64,000 nucleotides of DNA, taken from UHGV virus genome UHGV-1367859; one strand, written 5' to 3'. This DNA comes from a virus. A program made the position numbers and the translations under genes. Position 1 is the stretch's first letter, and every line of letters begins with the position of its first letter. Shown here in pieces: positions 43,257-64,000 of the stretch. The notes below the pieces were generated by a model that saw only the letters and a list, made by a program, of their open reading frames with translations, had not been told where the DNA came from and ran no database searches.

Positions 43257-44315
43257 TTGTACGAAGATATGTGGGATAATCTTTCAATGGCTGAAAAAGC
43301 TAATATTATAATGTTAGGTATAAAATCGGGTATTGTAGATTTGCCAACCATAAGAAGGGGTTATAATAGTTTTGCTAGAGGGGGATATACTAAGTGGAAA
43401 GAGAAGATTCAAAAGCATAAAGGAATTATTATAGATGGTGATGACACCTATGACTATAGAGGGTTTTATGATAGCAATCCTGATGCTGCTTGGGAGATGC
43501 TGAAAGAGTCTGGTACAAGTCACTTTCCTGATAGATTTAAGACTGCAAGTCACCCATCCTTCTCAGATGAATCTCAATACTCTGGCAGAGTAAGTAGACA
43601 CAATCCTAAAGGTATACAAGGTGGTCATTGGTATAATGACCACATATACCAAATGTCGGAAGACCAGTTCAGCACAGACTGGGATACAGATAGAACTTTA
43701 GATTATTTCAGTCAAGAAAATGAGTCTCCTGTATTATACGGACCAGATGGCTCTACAGTACTAAGAAGTATACAAGTTACGCCTCAGTCTTCTGCACTAA
43801 ATAGAAGTAGAGAGGCAACAAGCCCAAATACTGACTTTAGTAATGCACAGGACATGACAGGAACACAACAGTTTGGGGCTAATTGGTTAGCAGAAATACC
43901 TATTATAGGTACTAATCCTCACACTTGTCTTAATACAGTTACAGGGTTTTATGACCCTAAGAGTACTGTAGCATCTAATGCTAATATGGTAGCTAGACCT
44001 GAAGATTTTGGGTATAGAGAGATACCACAAACTGAGGCAGTCCCTGGAGATATTATTATACTTTCAAATAGTGATAATCATCCTACTCACGCTGTAATGT
44101 TTGACAGTGTATCTGAGGAAGAGGGGATACATAATGGGTATCATATTGAAGTAGGAGATACCTTAGTTAACTATTCTAATGGAGGGAGAAATAAAGGCGA
44201 CTATAGGTTGCAAGGACCATTGCCTAGATTTAATGACCCAGAGAGAGCAGGAGGAGATTTTTCAGGGGTACATAGGTACTATAGATACACTGGAAAAGGA
44301 AGAAAGAAAAAATAA
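43257..44315 (+). CDS. hypothetical protein with papain-like (CHAP/NlpC-P60-type) Cys/His candidate catalytic dyad
   Basis: PHTCLNTVTGFYDP (Cys) and NHPTHAVMF (His). TAA stop. No in-frame TAG. Confidence 0.35.
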   Translation: MYEDMWDNLSMAEKANIIMLGIKSGIVDLPTIRRGYNSFARGGYTKWKEKIQKHKGIIIDGDDTYDYRGFYDSNPDAAWEMLKESGTSHFPDRFKTASHPSFSDESQYSGRVSRHNPKGIQGGHWYNDHIYQMSEDQFSTDWDTDRTLDYFSQENESPVLYGPDGSTVLRSIQVTPQSSALNRSREATSPNTDFSNAQDMTGTQQFGANWLAEIPIIGTNPHTCLNTVTGFYDPKSTVASNANMVARPEDFGYREIPQTEAVPGDIIILSNSDNHPTHAVMFDSVSEEEGIHNGYHIEVGDTLVNYSNGGRNKGDYRLQGPLPRFNDPERAGGDFSGVHRYYRYTGKGRKKK

Positions 44316-44351
44316 TTCAGTAAAAAAAAAGTTGTATATAAAAAACATAAT

Positions 44352-44924
44352 ATGAAACTAGGCACACATAATTCAATGTCTTATCTTAAACCTAAAAGAT
44401 GGTGGATGAGACCTTTTCACTTCATAGCTAAATGTCAAAGTAGACATATAGACCATTAGTACAAGCTAGGTGCTAGAATGTTTGATATAAGAGTCTCTTA
44501 TAATAAGTATGGAGAAGCTGAATTTAGACATGGCTCTATGGCATTTGAAGGAGATGTAGAAGGAGTATTTAAATATTTGAATAGTCGTAATAGAGCTATC
44601 TATGTAAGATTAATTCTAGAAGTGTCAAAGAATACTAAGAACAGGGAAGATAAAGAAAGACTGTTTATTAATGATTGTAAGAGATGGGCTGAGACATATA
44701 CCCATATTAAATTTTTCTGCGGAAGAAGAAAATTTGATTGGGTTCAGTTATATAAGTTTGAACTAGATGATATAGAGCTTGTTCAGAAAATCTCCTCCAT
44801 GACTGGTACAGTACTAGATGATTGGTGGCCTTGGCTATATGCAAGGTTCTTCAATAAGAAGAATCTAGAAAAGCATAGAGATAGTAAGGATTGGATGTTG
44901 ATTGATTTTATTGGAATGGTATAA
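44352..44924 (+). CDS. hypothetical protein; one in-frame TAG if started at ATG 44352 (alternative start 44478)
   Basis: Frame open from MKLGTHNSMSYLKPK... through TAG at 44457 into ORF-track ORF 44478..44924. Confidence 0.35.
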
Positions 44925-45005
44925 AGTGTGATAATTTATCTATGGTAATATAAAAGCCATAGATAAATTATTTTATTATATAAGCTAAAAAAAACACTTA
45001 GCCTA

Positions 45006-45036
45006 TTGGATATATCATGGCTATTATATAACTTTG
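45006..45036 (+). promoter_or_regulatory. Bacteroidetes-type promoter (TTGGATATATCA-N11-TAACTTTG)
   Basis: Same spacing as 42943 and 46170. 18 nt upstream of ATG 45055. Confidence 0.5.
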
Positions 45037-45054: not shown

Positions 45055-46090
45055 ATGAAAACTAGAAAAGAGACTGTACTAGGTAAGAGATTAGTGTAGG
45101 GAGACCCTAATCTAGTTACCAAAGATGAAATACTTGTAAAAGAAGTTGGGAATGAAGTTAAGTTATATGAGAGAAGTGATAATGGTAAACTTGTGTTATT
45201 AACTCCTGAAAGTAATAAACCTGCACCTAAAGATTATTTAGAGGTTTATTGGGCTAATTTCTCATGTCATATGAACCCAGGAAACATGGTACCTACTGAC
45301 ACTGCGTATACCATAGCTATAGACGCTCTACCATTAAAAAGAAATGGAAAAAATATATAGTATTTTTTATTTTCATTTCCTTTTTAGGGAGACTACTCCC
45401 TCGATGAGGGAGAAGTGACTGTTCTTACGAGATTAAGAACAGTCGACAACTCCCATTTGTTGGAGTTGCAAGAATTAAATAAAATACATAATATACAAGA
45501 CGTCCTTAATATAATAACTAAGGATGCGTTTGTCGAGGACCTACATACAACCAATTATATTCCATCTATAATACGCCAAAAATCTAGAGGAATTCTTGGT
45601 TTAATTAAATTAACTGCTAATACAGACGATTATCATATTCTAGATGCAAACTTAGAATTTCTTCCTGCGTTTACACAGAAAGAGGAACTTGAGGAGTAGA
45701 AATCTTTATTAGATGGGTCATTCAGAGAATGGAGGTGGAAAGCTAACTTTAAAATAAAAAATATAGATAATTAGGTTAGAACCTTCCTAGCTGAAGAAAT
45801 GTGTTATGTAGATGGAACTGTGATAGCAGGTTCTATAGGACCTACTTATCTTCAAAGCATTCGCCAGGCAATTATTAAGAATAAAGAAGTCTATGTTGGA
45901 GAGGTCCCAGCTAATGGAGGCCGTCATAAAGTAGATAATGGGGTAATACAACATGCTAAGTATCTATTTACTAGAAATACCTATGTTGTTAACTAGGCCT
46001 ATAAAAGCAGATAGACTCCTGTCTCTCAGGAGGATCTTCGCAGGTATTTTATAAAAAACATAAGCCAACACAAAATTTTAACAAAATAAA
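45055..46090 (+). CDS. hypothetical protein(s) in one reading frame with 6 in-frame TAG codons, ending at TAA
   Basis: ORF-track ORFs 45415..45699 and 45799..45996 share this frame. Hand translation shows only TAG interruptions from 45055 to TAA at ~46088. Confidence 0.4.
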
Positions 46091-46221: not shown

Positions 46222-46293
46222 TGCCACTTGGTGTAATGGTCAGCACATCAGATTTTGGTTCTGAGTGTAAGGGTTCAAGTCCTTTAGTGGCAA
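46222..46293 (+). tRNA. tRNA-Gln(UUG)
   Basis: Acceptor TGCCACT/AGTGGCA (U1:A72), D-arm GTGT-AATGGTCA-GCAC, anticodon arm TCAGA-TTTTGGT-TCTGA, T-arm AAGGG-TTCAAGT-CCTTT. Confidence 0.75.
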
Positions 46294-46297
46294 CTAT

Positions 46298-46369
46298 GCT
46301 CCCTTAGTTCAATGGAAGAACAAGGGTCTTCTAAGCCCTAAGTTGTAAGTTCGAGTCTTACAGGGAGTA
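46298..46369 (+). tRNA. tRNA-Arg(UCU)
   Basis: Acceptor GCTCCCT/AGGGAGT, anticodon arm AGGGT-CTTCTAA-GCCCT, T-arm GTAAG-TTCGAGT-CTTAC. Confidence 0.7.
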
Positions 46370-46454
46370 CAAACTTGTTCGTGAAAAGAATGTAAATGGC
46401 AAAGAAGTGAGAATCATTACCTACCTAGCCTGTGAAGGTGCAAGTAGGGTGCAT

Positions 46455-46527
46455 GGTGCCATCTTCTAAATGGTCAGGAAACTGCCCTTTCAAGGCAGTA
46501 ATCTGGGTTCAAACCCCAGTGGCACTA
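46455..46527 (+). tRNA. tRNA-Glu(UUC)
   Basis: Acceptor GGTGCCA/TGGCACT, anticodon arm CTGCC-CTTTCAA-GGCAG, T-arm CTGGG-TTCAAAC-CCCAG. Confidence 0.7.
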
Positions 46528-46534
46528 CAATATA

Positions 46535-46609
46535 TAGCTCATGAAGTGTAATGGTTTTGCATATCACACTGTCAATGTGAGGGATGGGGTTCAATTCCCC
46601 CATGGGCTG
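46535..46609 (+). tRNA. tRNA-Asp(GUC)
   Basis: Anticodon arm TCACA-CTGTCAA-TGTGA, T-arm around GGGG-TTCAATT-CCCC. Acceptor register ambiguous by 1 nt. Confidence 0.6.
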
Positions 46610-46643
46610 CTGGCTATGTAACAAAGGCTCAGAGGAGCCAAAT

Positions 46644-46730
46644 GGAAGTCTAATCTATCAGGGATAGAAGCAGTCTTGAAAACTGAATGCTCATGTGAAA
46701 GTGGGTGGGGTTCGAGTCCTCAGGCTTCCT
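46644..46730 (+). tRNA. tRNA-Ser(UGA), class II long variable arm
   Basis: Acceptor GGAAGTC/GGCTTCC, anticodon loop CTTGAAA, T-arm TGGGG-TTCGAGT-CCTCA. 87 nt. Confidence 0.6.
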
Positions 46731-46732
46731 CT

Positions 46733-46930
46733 ATGATAACAATATTGAGAAGAGAAGGGTGGGTACTCAACCCTAATGATAAAGTAGTCAACTCAATACT
46801 TAAGAGAGTTGAACAGAACAATGGACTATGTCCCTGTCAGAATGACTCTGAGGATAAGCATTGTCCTTGTTCGAACTATAGAGTACTAGACCACTGTTGC
46901 TGCGGTTTATATAAGAAACTTGGAGAGTAA
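46733..46930 (+). CDS. small Cys-rich protein, ferredoxin-thioredoxin-reductase catalytic-subunit-like (CPC...CPC...HCC) candidate
   Basis: MITILRREGWVLNPNDKVVNSILKRVEQNNGLCPCQNDSEDKHCPCSNYRVLDHCCCGLYKKLGE. The ORF-track ORF 46676..46930 has a 5' extension overlapping tRNA-Ser. Confidence 0.35.
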   Translation: MITILRREGWVLNPNDKVVNSILKRVEQNNGLCPCQNDSEDKHCPCSNYRVLDHCCCGLYKKLGE

Positions 46931-47006
46931 TTTATCAAGGTGATAAACCTATCTGCTAAATAGTGTGGTCATTAATTTGGCTTTGGTTCGAGTCCAATGC
47001 TCTCCT
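46922..47006 (+). tRNA. tRNA-Ser(GCU), class II
   Basis: Acceptor GGAGAGT/GCTCTCC, D-arm TTATC..GATAA, anticodon loop CTGCTAA, T-loop TTCGAGT. Confidence 0.6.
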
Positions 47007-47012
47007 CAACAT

Positions 47013-47087
47013 AGAGTAGTAGGGTAATAGGTAACCCCCTTCATTTGGGATGAAGTGATACTGCAAGTTCGAGTCTTGTCTACTCTA
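47013..47087 (+). tRNA. tRNA-Pro(UGG)
   Basis: Acceptor AGAGTAG/CTACTCT (perfect), anticodon arm CTTCA-TTTGGGA-TGAAG, T-arm GCAAG-TTCGAGT-CTTGT. Confidence 0.7.
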
Positions 47088-47093
47088 CTTAAT

Positions 47094-47167
47094 GGGCGTT
47101 GTGGTGTAATTGGCTAACACATCTCCTTTGCAAGGAGAAGTTCAGGGTTCAAGTCCCTCATTGTCCA
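47094..47167 (+). tRNA. tRNA-Ala(UGC)
   Basis: Anticodon arm TCTCC-TTTGCAA-GGAGA, T-arm CAGGG-TTCAAGT-CCCTC. Acceptor has one mismatch. Confidence 0.6.
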
Positions 47168-47252
47168 CTTTGTTTTTCATGTTTTCATAAAATTGTAGGA
47201 CTGTTGTTAGTCCCTCTTTTCGGCAGTTAGAGGATAAAGAAACTGCCCACTT

Positions 47253-47323
47253 TGGGATATAGCTCGAAGGTCGAGCGTGAGACTGTTAATCTCTTGGTGA
47301 GAGTTCGATTCTCTCTATCCCAG
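47253..47323 (+). tRNA. tRNA-Asn(GUU)
   Basis: Acceptor TGGGATA/TATCCCA, D-arm GCTC-GAAGGTC-GAGC, anticodon loop CTGTTAA, T-arm GAGAG-TTCGATT-CTCTC. Confidence 0.7.
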
Positions 47324-47438
47324 CCTAATAAAGAGAATAGTACTAGTGTAAGACTCAACGTAACATGTTCAGATATTAGCTCTGTTCTGAGTGTCGTATA
47401 ACTCAACCTAGCTACAGGGGGTGGTTAAAGGTAGCAAC

Positions 47439-47483
47439 TGGTAGGTATGGTACTAGTAAAAGTTCGATTCTTTTACCTACCAC
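47439..47483 (+). pseudogene. tRNA-like minihelix (7-bp acceptor stem plus T-arm, no D or anticodon arm) immediately 5' of the HNH gene
   Basis: GGTAGGT-ATGGTACTAGT-AAAAG-TTCGATT-CTTTT-ACCTACC-A, only 43 nt. Upstream 115 nt has no other tRNA parts. Confidence 0.3.
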
Positions 47484-47484
47484 T

Positions 47485-47961
47485 ATGAGAAGAAAAGGTA
47501 CAAGTAAAGTATATAGTATCTCTGATAAGGAGTTTATAAATTTAATAAATAGAGTTAATAGTTACTCTGATGCCCTGAGAGCATTAGGACTAACTACTAA
47601 AGGGGGTTCTTCACAAGATGTCTTGAAAAGAAGAATCCAAGAACTAGGATGTTCAACATCTCACTTTGGAGATGTAAGCATAAAATCTCCAACGCAAGTA
47701 TATCCCATTGAGAACATACTAGTAAAGAATAGTAGCTATGCTAATATAGCTTCACTTAAAAGAAGGCTTATAGACAATAAGTTGCTAAAATATGAATGCA
47801 GTAAATGTGGTATATCCTCGTGGAATGGTCAGCCACTATCTCTACATCTAGACCACATAAATGGTATAAATAATGACCATAGATTAGAGAATTTAAGATT
47901 CTTATGCCCTAACTGTCATTCACAGACAAGTACATACGCAGGTAAAAACAAAAGAAAATAA
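47485..47961 (+). CDS. HNH homing endonuclease
   Basis: LHLDHINGINNDHRLENLRFLCPNCHS is an HNH core. Embedded between tRNA-Asn and tRNA-Trp. Confidence 0.8.
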   Translation: MRRKGTSKVYSISDKEFINLINRVNSYSDALRALGLTTKGGSSQDVLKRRIQELGCSTSHFGDVSIKSPTQVYPIENILVKNSSYANIASLKRRLIDNKLLKYECSKCGISSWNGQPLSLHLDHINGINNDHRLENLRFLCPNCHSQTSTYAGKNKRK

Positions 47962-47970
47962 TCATTACTC

Positions 47971-48042
47971 ATTGGTGTAGTGTTAATGGTAGCACAGTGA
48001 ACTCCAAATTCACAAGTGAGGGTTCGATTCCTTCCACCTTTG
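47971..48042 (+). tRNA. tRNA-Trp(CCA)
   Basis: D-arm GTGT-TAATGGTA-GCAC, anticodon arm GTGAA-CTCCAAA-TTCAC, T-arm GAGGG-TTCGATT-CCTTC. Acceptor has 2 mismatches. Confidence 0.55.
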
Positions 48043-48048
48043 CCACAT

Positions 48049-48122
48049 TGGGATATAGCTTAGATGGTTAAAGCATCTGACTGATATTCAGAAGACCGTA
48101 GGTTCAAGTCCCACTATCCCAA
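48049..48122 (+). tRNA. tRNA-Ile(GAU)
   Basis: Acceptor TGGGATA/TATCCCA, D-arm GCTT..AAGC, anticodon arm TCTGA-CTGATAT-TCAGA. Confidence 0.7.
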
Positions 48123-48124
48123 CT

Positions 48125-48196
48125 GTACTAGTAGCTTAATGGTAAAGCACCACACTGTGAATGTGGAAGATGTGAGTTCAATTCTCACCTAGCACC
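48125..48196 (+). tRNA. tRNA-His(GUG)
   Basis: Anticodon arm CCACA-CTGTGAA-TGTGG, T-arm GTGAG-TTCAATT-CTCAC, discriminator C. Confidence 0.65.
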
Positions 48197-48204
48197 CCAA
48201 CATA

Positions 48205-48279
48205 TGGATGTATCCCCTGTGTCTTATACACACTAGAAAGGGTAGTTGGTCACACGCAGGTTCAAGCCCTGCCATCCAT
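48205..48279 (+). ncRNA. atypical tRNA-like gene: perfect acceptor (ATGGATG/CATCCAT) and T-arm (GCAGG-TTCAAGC-CCTGC), hairpin TGTGT-CTTATAC-ACACA (UAU), no recognisable D-arm
   Basis: Manual folding. Could be tRNA-Ile(UAU)-like with a noncanonical core, or a degenerate copy. Confidence 0.3.
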
Positions 48280-48338
48280 ACAATACTCATGAGTGGCATA
48301 GTAGTCCCTGGGGTGGTTTCAAACTGCTATGTCTGTAT

Positions 48339-48410
48339 CTCTAGGATTCCGAATGGTTAGGAGCTGGTCTGCAAAACCAGTATTTGTGGGTTCAATTCCC
48401 ACCCTAGAGT
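48339..48410 (+). tRNA. tRNA-Cys(GCA)
   Basis: Acceptor CTCTAGG/CCTAGAG, anticodon arm CTGGT-CTGCAAA-ACCAG, T-arm GTGGG-TTCAATT-CCCAC. Confidence 0.7.
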
Positions 48411-48522
48411 CCTTGGAGGAGCAGGTAGTCTATCCATGGAAAAACCTCCGTAAAAACAGCTACAATTGACTACTAAGGAGAAGGAAGGGATAAATAACTC
48501 CTTAACAAATACCCTTCTACCA

Positions 48523-48594
48523 CTTCCTATAGCTCAATGGTAGAGCTACTGACTCTTAATCAGAAGGTTCAAGGTTCAAATCCTTGTAGGAAGA
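48523..48594 (+). tRNA. tRNA-Lys(CUU)
   Basis: Acceptor CTTCCTA/TAGGAAG, D-arm GCTC-AATGGTA-GAGC, anticodon loop CTCTTAA, T-arm CAAGG-TTCAAAT-CCTTG. Confidence 0.7.
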
Positions 48595-48776
48595 CATAAC
48601 ATTTTAATTAAATAACAGTGTTATGAGAGTACTTAGATTTATTAAGAAAGCAGTCAAAGCTTATTTTAGAATGACTGCTGAGAACTATTCTATAAGGTGT
48701 ACAGGTGATGTATTTATACCTGTCCCTTAAGGATAGTTCCTCCTTCCTCTCTGACAAGTTATTTGATAATAAATAT

Positions 48777-48857
48777 GGGAGTATCGCGTAGTGGCAATCG
48801 CAGTTGACTGTAAATCAACCCTCTAAGAGTTCATAGGTTCGAGTCCTTTTGCTCCCA
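48777..48857 (+). tRNA. tRNA-Tyr(GUA), long variable arm
   Basis: Acceptor GGGAGTA/TGCTCCC, anticodon arm GTTGA-CTGTAAA-TCAAC, T-loop TTCGAGT. Confidence 0.65.
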
Positions 48858-48922
48858 CTTCAATAGAACTTTGGCTTTTATCTATAAGCCTGACAGGGGT
48901 AGAGACCTGAATAGATAATATT

Positions 48923-48995
48923 GGAACTTTGGTGTAGATGGTTTGTCACATCAGATTGAAGCTCTGAGGGCTGGGGTTCGACTCCCTGAGGTTCC
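48923..48995 (+). tRNA. tRNA-Phe(GAA)
   Basis: Acceptor GGAACTT/AGGTTCC, anticodon arm TCAGA-TTGAAGC-TCTGA, T-loop TTCGACT. Confidence 0.7.
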
Positions 48996-49019
48996 ACTAC
49001 ATAGTAAAAAGAGAAAGAT

Positions 49020-49619
49020 ATGGTAATAAAAAGAGGGGATAAAGGTCCTAATGTAAAGCTCCTTCAGAGGAAGCTTAATCTGAAAGATGATGGAATATTT
49101 GGACCTCTCACAGAAGAAGCAGTCAAAGAATTTCAGAAGGCTAATGGTCTTGTTGTAGATGGCATAGTGGGAAATAACACATGGTCTAAGCTGAATGTAA
49201 CTCAGAACAAGAGGAATATAAAGGAAATTATAGTTCATTGTTCTGCTACTCCTGAAGGTGAGGACTTTACTACTGCGCAGATTAAGCAATGGCACCTTCA
49301 AAGAGGTTTCTCTGATATAGGTTATCATTATGTAATCTATAGAGATGGGTCAATACATGCTGGTAGACCAGAGGCTATATCTGGAGCACACTGTACTGGG
49401 CACAATACAATGTCTATTGGAGTATGCTATATCGGAGGATGTGCCAAGGATGGAAAAACTCCAAAAGATACTAGAACTGAAGCTCAAAAAGCTGCTCTAG
49501 TACAGCTTCTTAAACAGCTTAAAGCAAAGTACCCTAATGCTACAATACATGGCCATAGGGAGTTTGCAAATAAAGCATGTCCAAGTTTTGATGCTAAAGC
49601 AGAATATACTTCTCTCTAA
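49020..49619 (+). CDS. N-acetylmuramoyl-L-alanine amidase (Amidase_2/PGRP) with N-terminal peptidoglycan-binding domain; endolysin
   Basis: PG_binding_1-like GDKGPNVKLLQRKLNLKDDGIFGPLTEEAV...NNTWSKL. Amidase_2 core HCSATPEG...GYHYVIYRDG...HGHREF...ACPSFD. Confidence 0.8.
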   Translation: MVIKRGDKGPNVKLLQRKLNLKDDGIFGPLTEEAVKEFQKANGLVVDGIVGNNTWSKLNVTQNKRNIKEIIVHCSATPEGEDFTTAQIKQWHLQRGFSDIGYHYVIYRDGSIHAGRPEAISGAHCTGHNTMSIGVCYIGGCAKDGKTPKDTRTEAQKAALVQLLKQLKAKYPNATIHGHREFANKACPSFDAKAEYTSL

Positions 49620-49634
49620 AAAGAGAGACAATAA

Positions 49635-49716
49635 GCCTCTGTGGTGAAATGGTAAACACAAGGGACTTAAAATCCCTCGGATTTAATCCTTGAGGGTTCA
49701 AATCCCTCCAGAGGTA
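49635..49716 (+). tRNA. tRNA-Leu(UAA), class II
   Basis: Acceptor GCCTCTG/CAGAGGT, anticodon arm AGGGA-CTTAAAA-TCCCT, T-arm GAGGG-TTCAAAT-CCCTC. Confidence 0.7.
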
Positions 49717-49720
49717 CAAT

Positions 49721-49807: not shown

Positions 49808-50253
49808 CTGAAATAAGAAATTAAGTATTTATATAACATTGAGTTTTACTGTAAATATTCAGGTGGCGTAATTCATGTTATCATAACCCCTTTACTATTT
49901 GTAAAAGTATGAAATACACAGTTTAGTATAATAAACAGAAATATCAAGTAGACATATCTGATAATAATATAGCTATTTATGATTCCTATAAAATCACTTC
50001 ATTATCTGATATGAGTAGTTTCTCATTCATTTAAAAGCTAGATTTTACCCATACAGTTCTATTAATAACAGAACTATGTTTAGCTTACTTAATGAATGGA
50101 GAACTCACAATTTATTATATTCTCTTGGTGTTCAAAAAGAAAGAACTGCTAGTGTAGACCTGGAGTCTAATCAATCTTGGTATATGACCGTAGCTTATGC
50201 TATATTATCTCCATTTTATTTACACTTTTATTAAAAATTTATTATCAATTTAT

Positions 50254-50284
50254 TTGGTAATTTAAATTATTTTTCATACCTTTG
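50254..50284 (+). promoter_or_regulatory. Bacteroidetes-type promoter (TTG-N20-TACCTTTG) dedicated to the suppressor tRNA
   Basis: TTG 50254-56, TACCTTTG 50277..50284. tRNA starts 18 nt downstream. Confidence 0.5.
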
Positions 50285-50301
50285 CATTGTTAATAAAATA
50301 T

Positions 50302-50373
50302 TGCCTCATGGTGTAATGGTTAGCACAGAGGACTCTAAATCCTTTGGTCTCTGTTCGAGCCAGAGTGGGGCGA
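50302..50373 (+). tRNA. amber-suppressor tRNA(CUA) with glutamine-type identity (reads UAG)
   Basis: Acceptor TGCCTCA/TGGGGCG (U1), D-arm GTGT-AATGGTTA-GCAC nearly identical to tRNA-Gln(UUG) at 46222, anticodon arm GAGGA-CTCTAAA-TCCTT gives anticodon CUA, T-arm CTCTG-TTCGAGC-CAGAG. Confidence 0.7.
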
Positions 50374-50706
50374 CTAACTTTAATCACAATGAATAAGGAA
50401 GCTTTAAAATGGTTTATGTCCAATGTAATGCTCTAGCTAGAGCAGATTGACAAAGAGGTAAGTAACTCACTGTTGCAGGATGAACAGTTTGTTCTTGATT
50501 TTTATGATAAATTAAATGAAATAAGTGTTAGAAAATAAAAAAAATATAATTATGGAACAGGTAAAGATACCACACCCTATTGCTAGGATGGTGCTAACAC
50601 AGACTAAAATTATTCTTAATAGCCCCAACAACCAAGACAAAGAGTGGCTCAAAACTTTTAAAGAAGAACTTAATAAACTTATTAATCCTGAGTAATCTTT
50701 AGGAAA

Positions 50707-50779: not shown

Positions 50780-50788
50780 CAAGTAAGT

Positions 50789-50859: not shown

Positions 50860-50865
50860 CTATAT

Positions 50866-51853: not shown

Positions 51854-51858
51854 AAGCT

Positions 51859-54583: not shown

Positions 54584-57500
54584 AGAACTCCTTGGGTCTT
54601 TACCTGAGGAAGTCAAGGAGGAGTTATTGGACACTATAAATAGTGTAGAACTTATAAAAAGACTTATCTCTCCTAATAGGGTATATGCTAAGGATAGACC
54701 AAGAGATGAGCAAGGAAGGATTATAGTAGACCTTGCCAATCCTCATATACTTGAGGATATGGATTATTTCAGACAACCAGCCTTACACTTTATGAAGCAT
54801 GGCTGCTATACTTTTCTAAGACCAAATTCTAATCCTAACAGTGAATACAGAAAGCACTGGGATGAGGAGATGAGGAGATGTAGAGAGGGTTATGTAAGGG
54901 AGAGTGATGGAGAATGGGTCACAGGATTCCTTTATTGGTTTCTTAATTACTGTCCCATGATGGTAAATAAGGTAATTTCTGGCACAAGGAAAGCTGTCAG
55001 AGTTGAGTCTTTCCCCTTCTTCTTTGAAGGAATCTATTGGAGATTTCACTATCTTCATCAAGCAAGAGAGGCTGGTAAACATGCCATAGAACTTGCAAAG
55101 AGAGGTTGTGCAAAGTCATATAGTCTTGCAAGTATAATGTCTCACAACCTTATACTTGGTGAATCTACTGAAGTAAAGAGGAGGGTTATTACTGTACTTA
55201 CTGCTTATCAGAAAGAGTATCTTAGTGACAGTAAGGATGGCACACTCTCTAAGTTCAAACCTGGAATTAACTTCTCCTTCAAAAATACTCCATTCCCTAG
55301 GCTCATGTTAAAGAACTCTCCTAATGAGATGGCATGGCAGATGGGCTACAAGGATGAGTTTGGTATTGAAAGTGGGTCATTGAATCAGGTGCTTGCTGTT
55401 TCTGCAAAGGATGACTCAGAGAAGTTAAGAGGTAAGAGAGGTTGGATTCTATTCGAGGAGATGGGTTCTTTTAAGGGACTTCTATCCCTGTATGACATCA
55501 CAAGAAAATCTGTAGAAGATGGTGACTATACATTTGCTACAATGTACCTTGTAGGTTGTGTATGTGCTGGTACTAAGGTATGGACATTAGATGGCAGGAA
55601 TATCAATATAGAGGATTTAAAGAGAGAGGATGGTATCATAGGATTTACAGACTCCTTTGAGTCAGGTACTGAACCTAATATTCGCCTCACAAGAGGGATT
55701 ACCAAAGAACCTATAATGAGTTCTATAAGTATTGCTAAAAAACCATGTGTACTTATTAAACTGAGTAATGGAAATGAACTTAGATGCTCTACAGACCATC
55801 CAATTCTTACTCAGAAACAAAGAATGAATCATAATGGGTCTATAAGGTATTATGAAGAAGTATTCAAAAATGCTGGAGCTTTAAGTGTAGGAGATAGAAT
55901 TATAGAGAGTAGGGAAGTTCCAATATTTGGGACAGATACCATGTTTGACCCTAGATTAGTAGGTATGCTTATTGGAGATGGTTCTTATGGATTAAGGCAA
56001 TCCCCCAAGTATAGTTCTGAGGATAAAGAGCTTTTAGACTATGTAAAGCATAGATATGAATGGTCATTATCTGCTACTCATATTACCAAGAAAGGAAAAA
56101 TATACGAGGATATAAGAATTAAAGGTATTTGTAATAAATTAAGAGAATTAGGTATTTAGGGGCAAGTAAAATCCAATAAAAGGCTTCCTATCAACTATTA
56201 GACTCTTACAAGAGATGATACCTCACTATTGCTATCTGGATTATATGATACTGATGGTAGTATAAGCTTTAATAGAGACGGATATATATCTTTAACTCAA
56301 AGCAATAGGAAAATATTAGAGCAAGTTAAAGTACTGTGGAGAAAATTTGGAGTAGTTGGCACTATTGTGGAGACCAAGCCAAAACTATGTTCTGATAGGA
56401 AAGATAGAAATTCTTGGTTTACTCTATCTATATCAGGGAGACATAATTGTACAAGAGTGTGTGGTGTGCTTCAACTTCTTGTTCCACACAAGAGAGATTG
56501 CCTTAAAAGGATAATGGACTATTATAATAGCAATCCGAGTATGAAGGCTCAAAAATATCCAGAGGATATAATAGTTCACAAAGTTACTTCTGTAGAAGAG
56601 ATAGGTGAACAAGAAGTATATAATTTAACTGCTGGATTAAGTCATACCTACTTGGCTAACAATATAGTAACTCATAATACTGCTGCTGAGGATGAGTCAG
56701 ACTTCAGTTCGGCAAAAACTCTTCTTTACAATCCAGATGGTTACAATATTCTGGCTATTGAGAATGTCTATGACAGACCTAAGCAAGGAAAGCCTACCTT
56801 TGGATTTTTCTTTCCTTCTTATGTAAATAGGGCAGGATGTTACAACAAGGATGGTGTTTCTGATGTAACAAAGGCTCTCATAGAAATTCTGTTGGCAAGA
56901 CACAAAGCTAAATATTCTGCTGACCCTAAGTCAGTATTAAGAGTTATTGCCGAGGACCCAATTACACCAGCTGAAGCTATCATTAAAGTGAAGGCTGCCT
57001 ACTTTCCTACAGTAGCTCTTACTGAGAGATTGGCTCAACTTGACTCAGACCCTCATGCTTTTGATGATGTTTACATAGGTAATCTTGCCCTAGCAAGTGG
57101 TAATAAGGTAGAGTTTAGAATAGGTAATGATGTGCCTATCAGAAAGTATGGAGTTGACAATTCAACAGTAGGTGCTATTGAGATATTTGAAATGCCTGAG
57201 AAACAAGCAAATGGGGATGATTTCAATATGAGATATATTATAGGCCATGACCCTGTGGATAATGATTAGGCAGAGTCTTCTTCTCTTTCTTCAACCTTTG
57301 TACTTGACCTGTTTACTGACAGAATTGTAGCAGAATACACTGGTAGGCAGGCATTTGCAGATGATAACTTTGAGATAGTAAGAATGCTGTGTCTATTCTA
57401 TAATGCCAAGTGCATGTACGAGGCTCATCCATATAGTCAGTCTGTACCAACACCAAATGGTATGAAACTGTGGAAGGATGTTAAAATAGGGGATAAACTG

Positions 57501-58904
57501 TTTTCCCCCACAAAGGGTGAAGTAACAGTAACTAATATACCAGTTGATGAGTACATGCCTATATATAAGGTTAAATTAGCTGATGGCAGAATTGTAGAAG
57601 CTAGTAATAATCATATATGGCTAGTATATAAAGGAACTTCTAGAACTCCTATCGAAATTACTACAGAAGAAATGCTTAGGTCAGGGTTAATAACTAAACA
57701 CAAGCAACATAAGTTTTTTATACCTGAGCATAATGGGGTTGATTATAGTTATAAAGAATTGCTCATAGACCCCTATACTATGGGTTTATTGCTTTCTGAA
57801 GGGAGTCTAACAGGAGGTCATTGTGGCAAAAATTATGTACAGATGTCCTCTTCTAGGGAAGATATGGATTTCTACAAAAAGAATATCCCATATAGAGTTA
57901 ACTATATTGGTAACAAGGGGTACTCTTGGCATATTTATATTCCAGGATGTAGAGATATAATGACTAAATATGGGTTATATGGAGCTACAAGTCACACTAA
58001 GTTCATTCCAAATGAATATCTTTTCAGTAACTATGTTCAGAGAATGGAACTACTGAGGGGAATAATGGATGGAGATGGGTGTGCCAGAACTAGGGGGGCT
58101 AGTGTATTTATTACATGCTCACAGTCACTTGCAAATAATGTATTATCCTTAGCTAGAAGTTTAGGGATGAAAGCATGGCTTCAGACTCCTAAAGAAGGGG
58201 TATATAGAGTGTTGATATCTTCCATATATAAGATATTCAAACTCCCTAGGAAAGTAGTGGAGCAACATACTTATAAGCCTTATAGTAAAGGAAGTAGAGC
58301 CTCAGCTATATTAGGAAAGACTGCGATAGATAGTATTAAATATTCTCACATGGAAATGGGCAAATGTGTCACTGTAGACTCAGATGATGGACTATATATG
58401 ATAGGAGATTATGTAGTAACTCATAATTGTAATAAGAAAGGACTATATGCCTATTTCAATAAAATGAATTGCACACACCTACTGGCAGATACTCCTGAAT
58501 ATTTAAGAGACAAACAGATGATTAAGTATTCTGCCTTTGGCTCAAATGCAAAAGGTATCAATGCGAATGCTACTATCAACAATTATGCTAATAACCTGAT
58601 AAGGGATTGGCTACTTCAGCCAGTTCCAACTATAATAAAGGAGGATGGAGAAGAGAAAGAGGTCAATATTCCAAGGCTCTATTCTCTAAGAAATAGAGCA
58701 TTACTTGAAGAGTTAATTTCCTACACTCCTGAACTTAATGTGGATAGAATCAGGGCATTAGGTATGGTTATGCTGTATAGACAAGAGAAGATTATACTGT
58801 ATAGAGATAATCTTAATGCTAAGGCACAGGAGGAAGTCAGTAGTTCATACTTAGGCAATGATTCTTTCTTCCAAAGGAATTACTCCCAAGGGTATATACA
58901 GTAA
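54576..58904 (+). CDS. terL: terminase large subunit, one 1443-codon frame containing 3 in-frame TAG codons and two inteins
   Basis: ORF-track ORFs 54576..56159, 56229..57269 and 57384..58904 share one frame, separated only by TAG at 56157, 56199, 57267. Walker A-like ELAKRGCAKSYS, Walker B WILFEEMG, nuclease motif IIGHDPVDND. Start may lie further upstream (frame open from 54480). Confidence 0.7.
55557..56678 (+). mobile_element. intein 1 in TerL (LAGLIDADG type), itself containing two in-frame TAG codons
   Basis: Starts CVCAGTKVWTLDG (block A), block B STDHPIL, LAGLIDADG motifs LIGDGSYG and LSGLYDTDGSIS, ends NNIVTHN|T. Inserted at ...ATMYLVG|TAAED near the ATPase coupling motif. Confidence 0.7.
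57441..58427 (+). mobile_element. intein 2 in TerL (LAGLIDADG type) in the nuclease domain
   Basis: Block B EASNNHIWLV, LAGLIDADG motifs LLSEGSLTGG and IMDGDGCA, ends GDYVVTHN|C. N-terminal boundary uncertain (Ser 57441 or Cys 57411). Confidence 0.6.
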
Positions 58905-59004: not shown

Positions 59005-61404
59005 ATGAGTGATTTCACAAATTTACCCCCACAACAACTGCCATTCTCCAGAAAGAATAAGGCTTGGAGAAAGAAGCACCTTGACTGGGCTGGCTCTAAG
59101 ACATTTTTCAACTATTCTTTGGTAAGGAAGAGTGTGATACATAAGAAAATCAACTATGATTTACTTAATGGTAGGCTTCACATGAGTGACCTTGCAATGG
59201 TATTGAACCCTGATAACATAAAGGCAGGTTACATACCTGAAAGGATTCAACATTACCCTATAATGAATAGTAAGCTGAATGTTCTTAGGGGAGAAGAGTC
59301 CGATAGAGTATTTGACTATAGGGTAGTTGTAACTAATCCAAATGCTATTTCTGAAATAGAGAATAATAAAAAGCAGGAATTACTTGCAAGAGTTCAGCAA
59401 CTATTAGCTGAGGAGACTCAATCAGAGGAAGAGTTCAATGCAGAGCTTGAAAAACTCAATGACTTCTTTACTTTTGAGTGGCAAGACATGAGAGAGGTAA
59501 GAGCCAATGCTCTCCTTAATCACTACTCTAAAGAGCTTAATTTCCCCTTCCTCTTTAACCAAGGTTTTACTGATGCAATGGCAGTAGGTGAAGAGATTTA
59601 CCAATGTGATATTGTAGGTGGTGAACCTATCATAGAAAGACTAAATCCTCTTAAAGTCAGAGTATTCAAGTCAGGATATAGTAACAGGATTGAGGATGCT
59701 GATATGATTGTACTTGAGGACTATTGGAGTCCTGGTAAAATCATAGACACTTATTATGATGTCCTTACCAAAAAGGACATGGAGTACATAGAAAAGATGC
59801 CCAATAACACAGACCAAGTAACTGACTCTATGGATAACATAGATGATAGAATGGGGTTTGTAAATGGGCACATGATAGGGGAAGAATTTACTTCTCAGGA
59901 AGGTTTCTTCTGGGACCCCATAGGAATGACAGATGGTGTAGGCACTTCACTTCTTCCTTTTGATGTTGCAGGAAATATAAGGGTACTTAGAGTTTACTGG
60001 AAATCAAGAAGGAGAATTAAGAAAGTTAAGTCTTACGACCCTCAGACAGGTGAAGAGGTATTTAATCTCTACCCAGAAACTTACGTTATAGATAAGGACA
60101 AAGGTGAGGAGGAAAAGATATTATATATCAATGAAGCCTGGGAAGGGACAAAGATAGGTAATGACATCTATGTCAACATGAGACCTAGAGTAGTTCAGTA
60201 TAACAGACTATCCAATCCTTCAAGGTGCCATTTTGGTATTATAGGTTCTATCTATAACCTTAATGACAACAAGCCTTTCTCTCTTGTTGATATGATGAAG
60301 CCCTATAACTATCTCTATGATACAATTCATGATAGGCTCAACAAGCTAATCTCAAGAAACTGGGGTATGCTTATTAACCTTGACCTTGCTAAGGTTCCTA
60401 AAGGATGGGAGATAGAGAAATGGATGTACTTTGCTAAGACTAATGGTATTGTAGTTACAGATAGTTTTAAGGAAGGCAATATTGGTGCTGCTACAGGTAA
60501 GCTTGCAGGTGCTCTTAACAATGCAAGTTCTGGAGTTGTCAATGCTGAACTTGGTAATACTATACAGCAATATACCAATCTTCTTGAGTTTATCAAGATG
60601 GAAATGTCTGATGTGGCTGGTATTTCTAGGCAAAGAGAAGGTCAGATAAGTAATAGAGAGACTGTTGGTGGTGTCGAAAGAGCTACCTTACAATCTTCTC
60701 ATATAACTGAATGGCTCTTTATCATACATGATGATGTAAAGAAGAGGGTTCTTGAGGCATTCCTTGAAACAGCTAAGATAGCTTTAAGAGGCAGAAGTAA
60801 GAAGTTCCAGTATATTCTTTCTGATAATTCAAGTAAGGTTATGGACATAGATGGAGATGAGTTCTCTGAAAATGATTATGGCCTTGTTGTAGATAATAGT
60901 AATGGACTACAGGAGTTACAGCAGAAGATGGATATGCTTGCTCAGGCAGCTTTGCAGAATCAGACTCTTACCTTCTCCACTATCATGAAGCTCTATAATA
61001 GCTCTTCTCTTGCTGAAAAACAGAGAATGGTTGAGAAGAATGAACAGGAGCTTATGCAAAGACAGCAGGAAGCTCAACAGCAGCAATTACAGGCTCAGCA
61101 ACAATAGGCTCAGATGGAAGCTCAGATAAGGGAAGCTGAAATGCAGCTCAAAGATACAATGAATCAGAGAGATAATGAGACTAAGATACTTATAGCAGGT
61201 ATAGGTTCTCAAAGTCAGGAAGATGGCATCCAAGAGCAGGAGTTTTCTGAAGAGGCAAGAGCTAATCTGTTTGAAAAGATGAGAGAGTTTGATGAGAGGC
61301 TCAAACTTGACAGAGAAAGGTTAGCCTTTGATAAGAAGAAAGCTCAAACTGATGCTGAACTCAAAAGAAAATAGATTAATAAGAAACCAAATACTAGTAA
61401 GTAA
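59005..61404 (+). CDS. portal protein (putative), with in-frame TAG at 61105 in a poly-Gln run and TAG at 61372 before the TAA/TGA stops
   Basis: ORF-track ORFs 59005..61107 and 61114..61374 share one frame (...LQAQQQ-TAG-AQMEAQ...). ~790 aa directly downstream of terL. Assignment is positional and size-based. Confidence 0.5.
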
Positions 61405-62318
61405 TGAGAAAATTTGATAATATAATACATTCAAATTCAGCCCCTCCTACCAATAGTCTGTGGCTCCATAATGACAAACTTCAATACCATAACAATGGCA
61501 AATGGACTGATATAATATTAACGATAGGAGAAGACAATCCAGAGGCTAAGTTAAAGTTTGAAGAGAGAGAACTGAGTCCCCTACATGACTATGTACCTGT
61601 TATACTTGTAAATAGAGACCGCGACGCGCCACTCAAAATTTTAGCAACGTTTTATAATGGTCAAGTAACAGCAATTGCCGATGGCAAGGCTATTATTTTC
61701 AATGTAGACTACAATGAGAATTGGCTTGTAAAGGAGACTAGAATTATTGACCTTACTCTACTTCCTACCTATGTTGACCTTGAACTAGGTGACTCTCCTG
61801 AGATTGAAGCATATAATAGAGAACAGCTGTCTAGGGTGGCAGGAACATAGTTCCTTGTTCATGCTGACTATGGCATTGGAGTAGGTTCTTGGTATTATAA
61901 TGCAGGTGGAGAAGCTACCATCACTACAGCATCAGGTAACAGAGTGCATTACATATTAACTGCGGATGGAGCTTGTAGAAGGGATGCTGACCACTTTGAC
62001 CATTCTGAATTATTTTATGATTTAGGGGTTATTAACTTAGCTGAAATAACTCCTACAACTATAATAAATAAAGAGATAACTGACTCTGTAGGGGTGGCTC
62101 AGTTCAAAAAAGCTTCGAATGTAGTTCTGACTGTTCACACTTCAAATGGAGATTTTGAAGTTAATTGCCCTCAGGTTTCAATGGGTCCTATTCAAAAGAC
62201 ATTTAATAGTCCTAGCATTGTAGCTGGTAATGAAGATAGTTGGAATTATCTTAAGATAATAGCTAACATCCAAACTGACCCAAGCAAAGTATTAATCACT
62301 ATTGAGGCAATGCAATGA
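61404..62318 (+). CDS. structural-module hypothetical protein with one in-frame TAG (61848)
   Basis: ORF-track ORFs 61404..61850 and 61944..62318 share one frame. TGA stop. Confidence 0.45.
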
Positions 62319-63110
62319 GAAAGTTTAGAGCAATAGTACAAACTCCAAAAGAACCATAGGACCATGAAGTCTTATGGTATTGGAAGGGTAATCTACTATA
62401 CTGGAATAATGGAGGTTGGGAACCATTTCATACCAATATTAAAGCTTCAGATATAAAATTTGAGTCTATCTTTTTTGATAATAAAGATAATGTAGATGAG
62501 GTACTAAGGGCATTACTTGAGATAGTTATAAGTAACCAATGGAAAATAGAGAATGCTTTTACAGTAATTGAAGCTGACAATATCCTTACTAATTCATTCT
62601 TTATTGATAGTACTAAGTATTGGTTATCTGAGATTCTTCAACCTTTTACAGTAGGGGCTAAATTTATTAAGGTAGGGAAAGGGTTTCTCTCTAAACAGAG
62701 AGCTAAAGCTGCTGTAATCAGAGAAGATGGAGTTCCTGTATTAGCTGTAAAGGGTTCCACTATACCTTGTACCCTTACTTAGCCTTTCTTATTCTTAAAT
62801 CTGGAAGCAATAGACCCTGATTATAAATTCCCATTCTATGTTACTTTAACATTCAAATTTAAAGGAACTTCATTTGGTAATATAGAAATAGCTACCGTAG
62901 ATTAGGATGGTGAGTCTATTGAAATAAAAGATACTTTGAGAATAGAACCTGATAATAAATGGCACATATATAAAACTACTTTTTTACTTGATAGGTATAA
63001 AGGAATAAGGTTTAATTTAAATGCTGATGTAAGGATAAAGGGGTTAAATATGAGAATGAATGAGGCTAGGACCCTTCATCTCAAGCCAGAAAGTTTAATT
63101 AATAAATAAT
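62319..63110 (+). CDS. hypothetical protein with three in-frame TAG codons, TAA stop
   Basis: Hand translation MRKFRAIVQTPKEP-TAG-DHEVLWYWKGNLLYWNNGGWEPF...-TAG-...-TAG-...LINK-TAA. No ORF-track entry because TAG splits it below cutoff. Confidence 0.4.
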
Positions 63111-63152
63111 GTAGATATGACTAAATAGGAAAAGGATGAACTATTTAATGAG

Positions 63153-64000
63153 TTGCTAGCTTTTCTCTCTAGGTCTTCAGTAAGTGTTGAAGACCTTCCA
63201 GAGGCTGGCAGCTTAGATGATGTGAATAGTTTTCCTGCATATAAGAAAGACTCTAAGGAGCTGGTAACCATTCCTTCTAGTGCTCTTAAAGAAGCTTCAA
63301 ATAAAGCTGATGCAGCTGCTCAGTCTGCACTTAGTGCATCTTAGCAATGTATGATTGCTGGAGCTAATGCTAACAATGCTGTATAGAGAGTCAACTAGAC
63401 CTTGAATTCTTTGCCTGGTTAGGTAGAAACACTGGTTAATAATTCTACTAGTGCACAGTCTAATGTAAATTCTAGAATTATTAATTTCTATACAAGTAGA
63501 CCTTCTTCTAATGCACTTGAATTAGAAATAACTGTATCAGAAAATGATTATAGAACTTTTGAATAGCTTCTGGAAGAAGAGTATGACTATGCTGATAGTT
63601 ATGACCATAGACCAATAATATTTACAGTTCTACAGAATAATGGTGTACCTAAGTATAGGAAGATTGTTTATGACAATAACCTTAGGGATAGTTAGAACTA
63701 TATTGACTATGACTTAAGTGGACTTCATGAGAGAATAGATACTCTTGACAGTAGGGTTCCTTATGATGCAGGAATAATAGAACTAGATTTAGTAAGTCAA
63801 GGAGAAACAACTTCCAAACAGGAAACTTTATTGCCTTCTAATAAAAATTATTTCAAATTTATAGAGATACTAGAATAGAGGGATAATAGGACTGTGCTAT
63901 GTACTATTGTCCCATCTAAAACTTAGGTAGGAAGTCCTTATACTGGTTTCAGATTCTTATGTTCTCTTCATAAGGATGGCTATGACTGGTCTATTCTTAC
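63153..64000 (+). CDS. hypothetical structural-module protein, frame open to window end with >=10 in-frame TAG codons and no TAA/TGA
   Basis: ORF-track ORF 63153..63344 continues in frame through repeated TAGs (…LSAS-TAG-QCMIAGANANNAV-TAG-…) to position 64000. Confidence 0.4.

Follow-up and report, generated by a model that had tools for sequence, protein, structure and literature searches.

Apparent decoding of TAG as glutamine in late-module genes of a Steigviridae phage lineage carrying an inserted amber suppressor tRNA

In the viral genome UHGV-1367859, of which a 64,000-nucleotide stretch was analysed here (the window), the packaging and structural genes on the plus strand appear as runs of open reading frames (ORFs) that share a frame and are separated only by TAG. 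This arrangement raises the question of whether TAG is a stop or a sense codon in these genes, which amino acid it would specify, and where the means to decode it came from. Judged from homology, the window belongs to a crAss-like Steigviridae phage (beta group) related to ΦcrAss001. The best explanation, in which we have high confidence, is that the phage's own glutamine (Gln)-like suppressor tRNA decodes UAG as Gln, that genes of the late module depend on it, and that the change is recent and still under way. Genes are called late or middle throughout by homology to the modules of ΦcrAss001, from which their timing is carried over.

When TAA and TGA alone were allowed to end a frame, seven genes of the plus strand contained 27 TAG, 0 TAA and 0 TGA codons in frame over 5,520 codons, in agreement with an earlier model-made reading of the letters (the sequence-only reading) that had joined plus-strand ORFs through TAG. 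Every complete frame ends at TAA or TGA, as that reading also had it, and the same is true of the complete right-arm genes as a whole (17/17). In the off-frames of the seven genes TAG is the rarest of the three triplets (TAA 4.8%, TGA 3.5%, TAG 2.9%), and the chance of a frame staying open past its first TAG ranges from 2e-4 for the portal gene to 4e-55 for TerL. These per-gene probabilities, together with the in-frame counts, exclude chance, and an assembly artefact is excluded because the same TAGs are present in four independent assemblies (the window, IMG/VR UViG_3300045988_037736, SRR8791370 and ERR11569452). As in genetic code 15, where TAG specifies Gln, TAA and TGA stay stops and are absent in frame. 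Public gene calls for the lineage already treat TAG as a sense codon: two Logan proteins, P0001 and P0007, are untranslatable under translation table 11.

All seven genes are on the plus strand, beginning with g44352 (44352-44924; 190 amino acids), which has a single TAG at 44457, and g45055 (45055-46089; 344 amino acids), which has seven, at 45097, 45358, 45385, 45697, 45772, 45994 and 46012. The TerL precursor (54531-58904; 1,457 amino acids) contains two inteins and four TAGs (54567, 56157, 56199 and 57267), and is followed by the portal gene (59005-61404; 799 amino acids; TAGs at 61105 and 61372), g61404 (61404-62318; 304 amino acids; TAG at 61848), g62315 (62315-63109; 264 amino acids; TAGs at 62357, 62780 and 62903) and g63117 (63117 to beyond 64000), which is cut by the window end. 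Nine TAGs of g63117 fall inside the window; the gene is complete in the sister genome, where it has 11, and its full length in sister strains is 365-374 amino acids. These tallies uphold the earlier ones for the portal gene (2, given before as 1-2), g61404 (1), g62315 (3) and g44352 (1) and revise the rest. TerL has four TAGs rather than three, since its start is ATG 54531 and not TTG 54576, which makes 54567 codon 13; g45055 has seven rather than six; and the frame given as 63153 to the end with at least 10 is g63117, with nine in the window. Of the Gln codons, TAG accounts for 4-11% in TerL, the portal gene and g61404, 25% in g44352, and 43-60% in g45055 (44%), g62315 and g63117 (60%), and the Gln-rich context reported before (LQAQQQ-TAG-AQMEAQ) is as described. 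A purine follows TAG at 21 of the 27 sites versus 67 of 109 CAA/CAG codons, a bias that is not convincing.

The encoded products are in part recognizable. About 45 N-terminal residues of g61404 resemble the head fibre protein gp21 of ΦcrAss001, and the N-terminus of g62315 is gp21-like. Resemblance of g44352 to a PI-PLC-like phosphodiesterase is weak, with a sub-threshold PDB match (E = 0.34) in which the alignment crosses the TAG with Q opposite Q. Searches of Pfam and PHROGs with the TAG-rich ORFs returned no families, g45055 and g63117 had no homologs in GenBank phages and IMG/VR beyond the sister genome, and in a large protein database g63117 had same-lineage matches only.

The pieces joined by TAG align with their homologs as single genes. 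Of the TerL TAGs, two belong to intein 1 and two to the exteins, and once both inteins are removed in silico the 729-residue extein aligns with ΦcrAss001 TerL in one piece, with 99% coverage and 80% identity. The 799-residue portal aligns over residues 1-798 with the ΦcrAss001 portal (806 amino acids) and crosses both TAGs, whereas standard-code translation would end at residue 700. This is the comparison that the sequence-only reading had proposed as a check, and it comes out in favour of readthrough, with both proteins crossing their TAGs unbroken and ΦcrAss001 having Q at 54567 and 57267. Six full-length homologs of g45055 from the large protein database (343-353 amino acids, on ~100-kb contigs) span all seven of its TAGs, and intein 1 has full-length single-piece homologs in the TerL of other crAss-like phages. 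TAG is thus found inside conserved sequences with continuous standard-code homologs in TerL, the portal gene, g45055 and intein 1. From the first to the second TAG of g62315, comparison with the sister strain gives 21 synonymous and 3 nonsynonymous differences, a ratio that is the expected signature of a translated frame. In g44352 the TAG is kept in two other strains, and the three strain differences upstream of it are all synonymous third-position changes. For g61404 and g63117, the assignment as single genes is based on the statistics of the open frames and on the recurrence of the TAGs in assemblies made independently.

To which amino acid TAG corresponds was read from a comparison set of 80 related loci, in which L003-L006 are the nearest standard-code relatives and L007 is more distant. 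L003 (contig UViG_3300045988_042591), the nearest of all, has ~86% nucleotide identity to the window over TerL and portal, and the portals of L003-L006 are 89-95% identical to that of the window. TAG 57267 falls in a stretch of 25 residues that matches ΦcrAss001 without a difference and has Q at this position in that phage, and TAG 54567 is opposite the Q of NKYQTELTEEL in the same phage. With Gln at the codon, the expected peptide is HDPVDNDQAESSSL across TerL TAG 57267 and LQAQQQQAQMEAQ across portal TAG 61105. All five TAG sites that can be aligned to L003-L006 have CAG or CAA opposite: CAG at TerL 54567 and 57267, CAG or CAA at portal 61105 and 61372 (here in L003-L007), and CAG at g62315 62357 in L003. 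At 57267, L007 has AGC, in a stretch of 69% nucleotide identity. An alignment of 82 portal sequences contains three independently recoded lineages (that of the window, L044/L046, and L069), and the portal TAG columns of these lineages hold Q in 1,103 of 1,914 aligned residues, followed by E in 246. TAG 45097 in g45055 occupies the position of an invariant Q in all six homologs, within the motif GKRLVQGDPNLVTKDEILVKE. Between strains, TAG and CAG alternate at 54567, 61237 and 62696, and other polymorphic TAG sites have TGG, TCG, GAG, TTG, GTG or AAT. At the level of sequence, these comparisons establish that UAG is read through and corresponds to Gln, and the proposal that TAG is a Gln codon stands on the conserved Q in ΦcrAss001, the CAG/CAA codons of L003-L006 and the majority of Q at the portal TAG columns. 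For crAss-like phages, decoding of TAG as Q has been demonstrated through metaproteomics (Peters et al. 2022, PMC9523058).

A candidate decoder is encoded on the same strand. A 73-nt amber suppressor tRNA with anticodon CUA and a Gln-like body, found by ARAGORN and by the Rfam tRNA model (55 bits versus a gathering score of 29), is located at 50302..50374 (+) and folds into a canonical 7/4/5/5 cloverleaf. It belongs to an array of 21 tRNAs (46222-50939, +) whose first member, tRNA-Gln(UUG) (46222..46294, +), is its nearest isoacceptor type in the phage, with 64% identity; the two have the D-arm, U1, G2, C3, C4 and A73 in common. Among the 80 related loci the suppressor is present in this lineage only, co-occurring with the TAGs, the contigs of the other recoded lineages (L044, L046 and L069) being short ones that do not reach the tRNA array. 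None of the three closest relatives with fully covered tRNA arrays (19-22 tRNAs) encodes it, and L003 has neither a suppressor nor an in-frame TAG in the portal gene or at the aligned TerL sites. As in code 15 phages, a cognate CUA tRNA is therefore present, and its co-occurrence with TAG is lineage-specific. No release factor or aminoacyl-tRNA synthetase genes were found among the window ORFs.

Compared with L003, the suppressor sits in a ~405-nt insertion (~50300-50706). A Bacteroidetes-type promoter-like motif, TTTG...TAccTTTG (50253..50284, +), ends 18 nt upstream of the tRNA and suggests transcription by the host RNA polymerase (RNAP); its pattern has 8 matches in the window versus 2.4 expected, and it is conserved in L003, there directly before tRNA-Thr. 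Identity of the suppressor is 81-84% with tRNA(CUA) genes carried by viral gut-phage contigs of 95-270 kb, and at most 70% with the tRNA-Gln of any relative. Acquisition from another phage is the best-supported origin, because identity to the suppressors of other phages (81-84%) exceeds that to the phage's own tRNA-Gln (64%). An origin in situ from that tRNA-Gln was rejected on the same 64% identity and on the absence of tRNA-Gln(CUG) from the window and the 80 relatives. A bacterial donor is unsupported. An exact scan for the 3' half of the suppressor in 185,579 genomes returned nothing, and a looser pattern of the D-arm and anticodon arm hit nine contigs only, all with eukaryote-type tRNA-Gln and probably contaminants.

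The position of the TAGs follows the modular layout of the genome. In ΦcrAss001, transcriptional modules track ORF orientation, with middle genes (replication) expressed at 10-30 min and late genes (structural, terminase, lysis) at 30-60 min, and both classes are probably transcribed by the host RNAP (PMC8375218). The left arm of the window (1..~41800, −) consists of homologs of ΦcrAss001 middle/early genes, including RNAP gp49/gp50, DNA polymerase, helicase, primase, anaerobic ribonucleotide reductase, ThyX and uracil-DNA glycosylase, and internal TAG is found in none of them. Every apparent case lies upstream of a homology-defined start, so the earlier statement that no left-arm gene needs an internal TAG holds for all. 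On module homology, the TAGs are confined to one module and excluded from the interior of middle/early genes, which is the combination of recoded late genes and standard-code replication genes known from code 15 phages. The earlier proposal of recoding confined to late genes, with the tRNA present beside them, fits the homologs of the ΦcrAss001 late module.

In the explanation that we favour, the phage tRNA(CUA) would presumably be charged with Gln by the host and would decode UAG in competition with host release factor 1 (RF1). Middle/early genes, free of internal TAG, would be translatable by the unmodified host ribosome, and the TAG-bearing late genes (terminase, portal, head-fibre-like and lineage-specific) would yield full-length products only after the suppressor accumulates. 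Placed in the plus-strand array behind the promoter-like motif, the tRNA would be transcribed by the host RNAP. It most probably arrived with the ~405-nt insertion from another phage, and TAGs would then have arisen mostly via CAG-to-TAG transitions. The charging enzyme, the timing of expression, a regulatory benefit and the donor are what we infer here. Judged from the relatives and strains compared, the recoding is recent, and turnover between strains continues.

Several observations weigh against this explanation. The suppressor deviates from the E. coli tRNA-Gln identity set at 3:70, 73 and 38, although the deviations at 3:70 and 73 are also present in the phage's own tRNA-Gln. Some TAG sites are opposite residues other than Gln (W, S, L, E, K, V, N) in homologs or strains, as is expected if any TAG-creating mutation is a tolerated missense change. 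Many plus-strand genes are TAG-free, including the amidase endolysin, g43257, both homing endonucleases and the gp9-gp17 homologs that lie directly upstream of TerL, and TAG is therefore not a uniform late-gene switch; the sequence-only reading had correctly exempted the amidase (49020-49619) and several other plus-strand ORFs from a need for readthrough. TAG also persists as a terminator in the left arm, in at least one ORF and at most three: read with the standard code, 42 of the 45 ORFs there end at TAA/TGA and 3 at TAG, contrary to the claim that every minus-strand gene end checked is TGA or TAA. The clearest case is a DUF3310/nucleotide-kinase-like gene (13813..14262, −; 14262..13819 to the TAG), a bona fide gene that ends TAG (13821-13819)-CTA-TAA. 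Depletion of TAG stops compared with ΦcrAss001 is not significant (3/62 versus 14/103, P = 0.11).

In the DUF3310 gene the TAA backs up the TAG two codons later. The other left-arm ORFs that end at TAG (13433-13660 and 41378-41767), a 55-amino-acid zinc-ribbon-like ORF and a 108-amino-acid ORF, would gain 19-20 codons from readthrough of TAG. Purging of TAG as a stop was considered and rejected, not being significant versus ΦcrAss001 (P = 0.11-0.22).

Of the alternatives, the one that survives best keeps the same decoding and assigns it another purpose, so that the suppressor would be mainly an anti-host or anti-phage weapon, acting by read-through of host TAG stops and interference with defence proteins, and the late TAGs would be near-neutral by-products without a timing switch. 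An anti-defence role was proposed by Yutin 2021 (PMC7886860), and a 2025 study points out that a tRNA(CTA) is retained in zeta crAss-like phages although no recoding is visible there, and raises the question of the reason (PMC12386605). The tRNA family of the window is moreover common to large phages, TAGs turn over between strains, the changes in core genes are mostly of the synonymous CAG-TAG type at 4-11% of Gln codons, and the amidase, the sole lysis gene in the window, has no TAG. We consider this purpose possible but improbable. TAG is strictly absent inside middle/early genes despite equal mutational opportunity, which argues for selection against TAG where the suppressor is not yet available; a dependence on timing would then exist whether or not it is a selected function. 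In lineage-specific late genes, in addition, 43-60% of the Gln codons are TAG. The unrecoded endolysin and the strain turnover of TAGs nonetheless lean slightly towards the by-product reading over the late-gene timing model for recoding of Borges et al. 2021/22 (bioRxiv 10.1101/2021.08.26.457843).

Decoding of TAG as an amino acid other than Gln (pyrrolysine, Trp, Tyr, Ser, Leu, Lys or Glu) is very unlikely. ARAGORN names the tRNA at 50302..50374 'tRNA-Pyl', a label that comes from the anticodon only, and the annotated window ORFs include no pyl genes, whereas a pyrrolysine system would pair an atypical cloverleaf with pylS and pylBCD. W, Y, K, S, E or L stands at some TAG sites in homologs or strains; Q is nonetheless dominant at the conserved TAG columns, the canonical cloverleaf has a body nearest tRNA-Gln, the tRNAs of the genome collection that match its D-arm and anticodon-arm pattern are all tRNA-Gln, and proteomics of other crAss-like phages gave Q (PMC9523058). 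The notion that TAG is an ordinary stop between separate genes or decaying pseudogenes can point to standard-code ORFs with start codons after some TAGs (56229, 57384 and 44478, for example) and to strain differences in g45055 that are almost only nonsynonymous, but is effectively refuted by the single-piece homolog alignments across TAGs, by the need of intein 1 for its C-terminal His-Asn|Thr, downstream of two TAGs, to release TerL, by the position of the TerL nuclease half past the third TAG, by the lack of TAA/TGA in 5,520 codons where decay in 36% GC DNA would give TAA first, and by the conservation of the TAGs in four assemblies.

The insertion that brought the Gln-like suppressor also holds two small plus-strand ORFs. 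The first, o1 (50389..50538, +; 49 amino acids), starts 15 nt after the tRNA and has an in-frame TAG at 50434; the second, o2 (50552..50695, +; 47 amino acids), has a conserved counterpart in the sister strain only. With o1 as the query, an iterative profile search covered all small ORFs of 76 loci that had been fetched solely for a similar tRNA(CTA), and exactly one homolog was found in 57 of them. In the 56 of these loci with a called tRNA(CTA), the homolog lies on the same strand, 4-561 nt downstream. Many of the related loci (L098-L186) are related phages, and shared synteny and ancestry inflate these counts. The homologs comprise 22 distinct sequences in ~10 subgroups at 30-50% identity and are marked by the motif (D/N)EQ(W/F)(F/V)LD(F/Y)xDxLNxxSV; an in-frame TAG is found in o1 of the window and in two other subgroups. 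Among the 18 loci without an o1 match, nine have less than 600 nt downstream of the tRNA, eight carry another, 91-nt class of tRNA(CTA) in large tRNA arrays, and L169 is a genuine exception.

A profile of the family retrieved 459 protein clusters (57-84 amino acids), all of them unannotated. Thirteen loci were fetched via five o1-family proteins, and 12 of them have a same-strand tRNA(CTA) 321-1,008 nt upstream, usually as the sole tRNA; the remaining one is a 3.7-kb contig without tRNA(CTA). The protein P0110 (locus L186, 756-1010), a tandem duplication of the o1 motif (NEQWFLDWLDELNKLS ... DSQWFLDWIDEINKLS), is the sole fetched family member without tRNA(CTA) in its short contig. No match to the family was found in Pfam and PHROGs. 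The AlphaFold2 model of o1 consists of two helices (predicted local distance difference test score 76), and a fold search with it gave no PDB match. That o2 might be homologous to what lies beside o1-like genes at other loci was considered and is unsupported (E = 0.1).

A real association between the tRNA and o1 is favoured by the varied spacings and subfamilies and by the joint entry of tRNA and o1 into the beta-crAss lineage, and as far as the literature was searched, an association of a suppressor tRNA with a conserved small protein is previously unreported. We hypothesize that o1 has a role in suppression. Tentatively, one may go further and picture a mobile 'code-change cassette', made up of the host-type promoter-like context, the Gln-like tRNA(CUA) and o1 and shared with 95-270 kb gut phages, in which o1 would be tied to suppression, for example by antagonizing RF1 or by helping to charge or stabilize the tRNA, and whose capture would have started the accumulation of TAG; we regard this picture as speculative and rather doubtful. 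The large contigs with tRNA and o1 had no match among GenBank phages at the DNA or the protein level; going by their sizes and PMC12386605, they are possibly zeta crAss-like phages.

Among the recoded genes, TerL is also distinguished by its inteins, which were compared with those of the same-lineage strains L002 and L096. Intein 1 (55557..56678, +; 374 amino acids), which contains TAGs 56157 and 56199, matches Pfam Intein_splicing and LAGLIDADG_3 and runs from Cys1 to His-Asn|Thr+1 (CVCAG...VTHN|T). ΦcrAss001 and L003-L006 lack exactly this insertion, and intein 1 has the predicted features of a class 1 intein with a homing endonuclease. Intein 2 (57423..58427, +; 335 amino acids), which has no TAG, matches Pfam Hom_end, runs from Ala-His-Pro-Tyr to His-Asn|Cys+1 and is absent from the sister strains L002 and L096. 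L002 TerL carries intein 1 and a different insertion in the Walker-A loop (KRG|AHPY...THN|CAKS; 6085-7106), L096 TerL (375-3743) carries intein 1 only, and L004 and L005 have yet another insertion site (L004 ~8547-9546). By these comparisons TerL is a hotspot of intein gain and loss among near-identical strains. Intein 2 and its relatives (L002 ~6085-7106 and L004 ~8547-9546) start with Ala-His-Pro-Tyr instead of Cys/Ser and end in Thr-His-Asn followed by Cys, and look like a putative non-canonical Ala1 intein family at three different Cys sites of TerL. In the left arm, the ThyX homolog (10748-12580, −) has 610 amino acids versus 299 in ΦcrAss001; its TAG-free insertion has a LAGLIDADG match and the flanks '...SQH|CYTGSS...' and '...ICGN|CAMLEHG', and is probably an intein in a middle gene.

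Strain divergence is unevenly distributed over the right arm. Compared with ~99% identical sisters (L084/L002), differences at codon positions 1, 2 and 3 number 9, 5 and 0 in g45055 and 5, 1 and 0 in g61404. Almost all of these differences are nonsynonymous, g45055 is clearly richer in substitutions than its 99.4%-identical flanks, and the pattern suggests diversifying selection. A diversity-generating retroelement behind the position-1/2-only changes of g45055 was rejected, the changes being mixed transitions and not adenine-specific. The segment 42875-44314, which holds a 352-amino-acid ORF (43257-44315), is 82% identical to the sister L084, and the adjacent 7.7 kb are 99.4% identical, a contrast that indicates a recent recombinational replacement.

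Assignment to Crassvirales and Steigviridae follows from signature genes (TerL, portal, the giant RNAP and the replication module) that have homology and synteny with ΦcrAss001. Relative to this Bacteroides phage, amino acid identity is 80% for TerL and 70% for the portal, and gene order agrees, with 28 left-arm and 16 right-arm ORFs matching ΦcrAss001 gp numbers in order and a syntenic tRNA array. The genome of the phage is given as ~101 kb, and 23 tRNAs fall within the window. From ~43,000 the plus strand runs from lineage-specific ORFs through the 21-tRNA array and the gp9-gp17 homologs to TerL, the portal gene and the head-fibre-like genes. Within the tRNA array are two TAG-free genes, for an HNH endonuclease (47485-47961, +) and for the amidase_2/PG_binding_1 endolysin (49020-49619, +), the latter distant from the position of the ΦcrAss001 lysis cassette. 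A GIY-YIG/NUMOD3 homing-endonuclease gene (52980-53645, +) is present in the window and the sister strain; the segment 52975-53628 is missing from L003-L006, and the gene looks like a mobile, free-standing endonuclease that has inserted between the homologs of gp15 and gp16.

How does this recoding relate to known cases? One related suppressor is E. coli supE (glnV), in which tRNA-Gln has changed its anticodon from CUG to CUA and inserts Gln at UAG in competition with RF1. The suppressor of the window likewise combines a Gln-type body with a CUA anticodon. However, supE is a point mutation of a resident tRNA, whereas the window suppressor is an inserted gene with 64% identity to the resident tRNA-Gln(UUG).

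Much closer are the code 15 crAss-like phages (PMC7886860; bioRxiv 10.1101/2021.08.26.457843; PMC9523058), which likewise have TAG in TerL, portal and structural genes, standard-code replication genes, a phage tRNA(CUA) and a code switch over a short phylogenetic distance. Yutin et al. 2021 described 243 crAss-like genomes, mostly from groups beta, delta and zeta, with TAG-to-Gln or TGA-to-Trp reassignment mostly in late genes, code switches over short distances, and a TerL with two inteins and TAGs (PMC7886860). From these phages the window lineage shows no difference in kind; it has 2-4 TAGs per core gene and many in lineage-specific genes. In the crAss-like set of Borges et al. the amidase and spanin families are preferentially recoded, in contrast to the unrecoded endolysin of the window. 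A parallel in history is OFRY01000050, a beta-group phage that gained a TAG suppressor and, unlike its closest relatives, began to accumulate TAG in conserved genes such as TerL (Yutin et al., PMC7886860). OFRY01000050 has 96.5 kb, 8 tRNAs and 15 TerL TAGs, compared with ~101 kb, 23 tRNAs in the window and 4 TerL TAGs here, and Yutin et al. proposed a bacterial source for its tRNA, whereas that of the window has no bacterial match and is closest to tRNAs of other phages. OBYQ01000140 (delta; Yutin 2021, Fig. 7b) similarly joins two inteins and alternative coding in one TerL gene. It belongs to another crAss family and has two Hint-Hop inteins with TAG in extein and intein; in the window only intein 1 has TAGs, and the intein complement of the lineage varies between ~99% identical strains. 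Finally, the Jade phage 'code change module' of Borges et al. resembles the present locus in linking a suppressor tRNA to protein gene(s) upstream of recoded late genes. The Jade module consists of a suppressor tRNA, a tryptophanyl-tRNA synthetase and RF1 upstream of the lysis cassette, whereas no synthetase or release factor was found in the window, where the linked gene encodes an unannotated helical protein of ~50 amino acids and itself has an in-frame TAG.

The recoding is thus a known phenomenon in a new lineage, already described for crAss-like phages (PMC7886860; bioRxiv 10.1101/2021.08.26.457843; PMC9523058). What is new is its recency and strain turnover, and the tRNA as a ~405-nt insertion behind a promoter-like motif, travelling with a conserved small protein. 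In practice, the right arm needs translation table 15, as table 11 fragments TerL, the portal gene and five other genes. The lineage appears to be at an early, polymorphic stage and has both standard-code relatives (~86% nucleotide identity) and a relative in culture, ΦcrAss001 of Bacteroides intestinalis (80% TerL identity), so that the step from suppressor to TAG accumulation would be open to experimental reconstruction. The link between the tRNA and the small protein, if functional, would be a missing protein component of phage code switching, and it might bear on why large gut phages keep an apparently unused amber suppressor.

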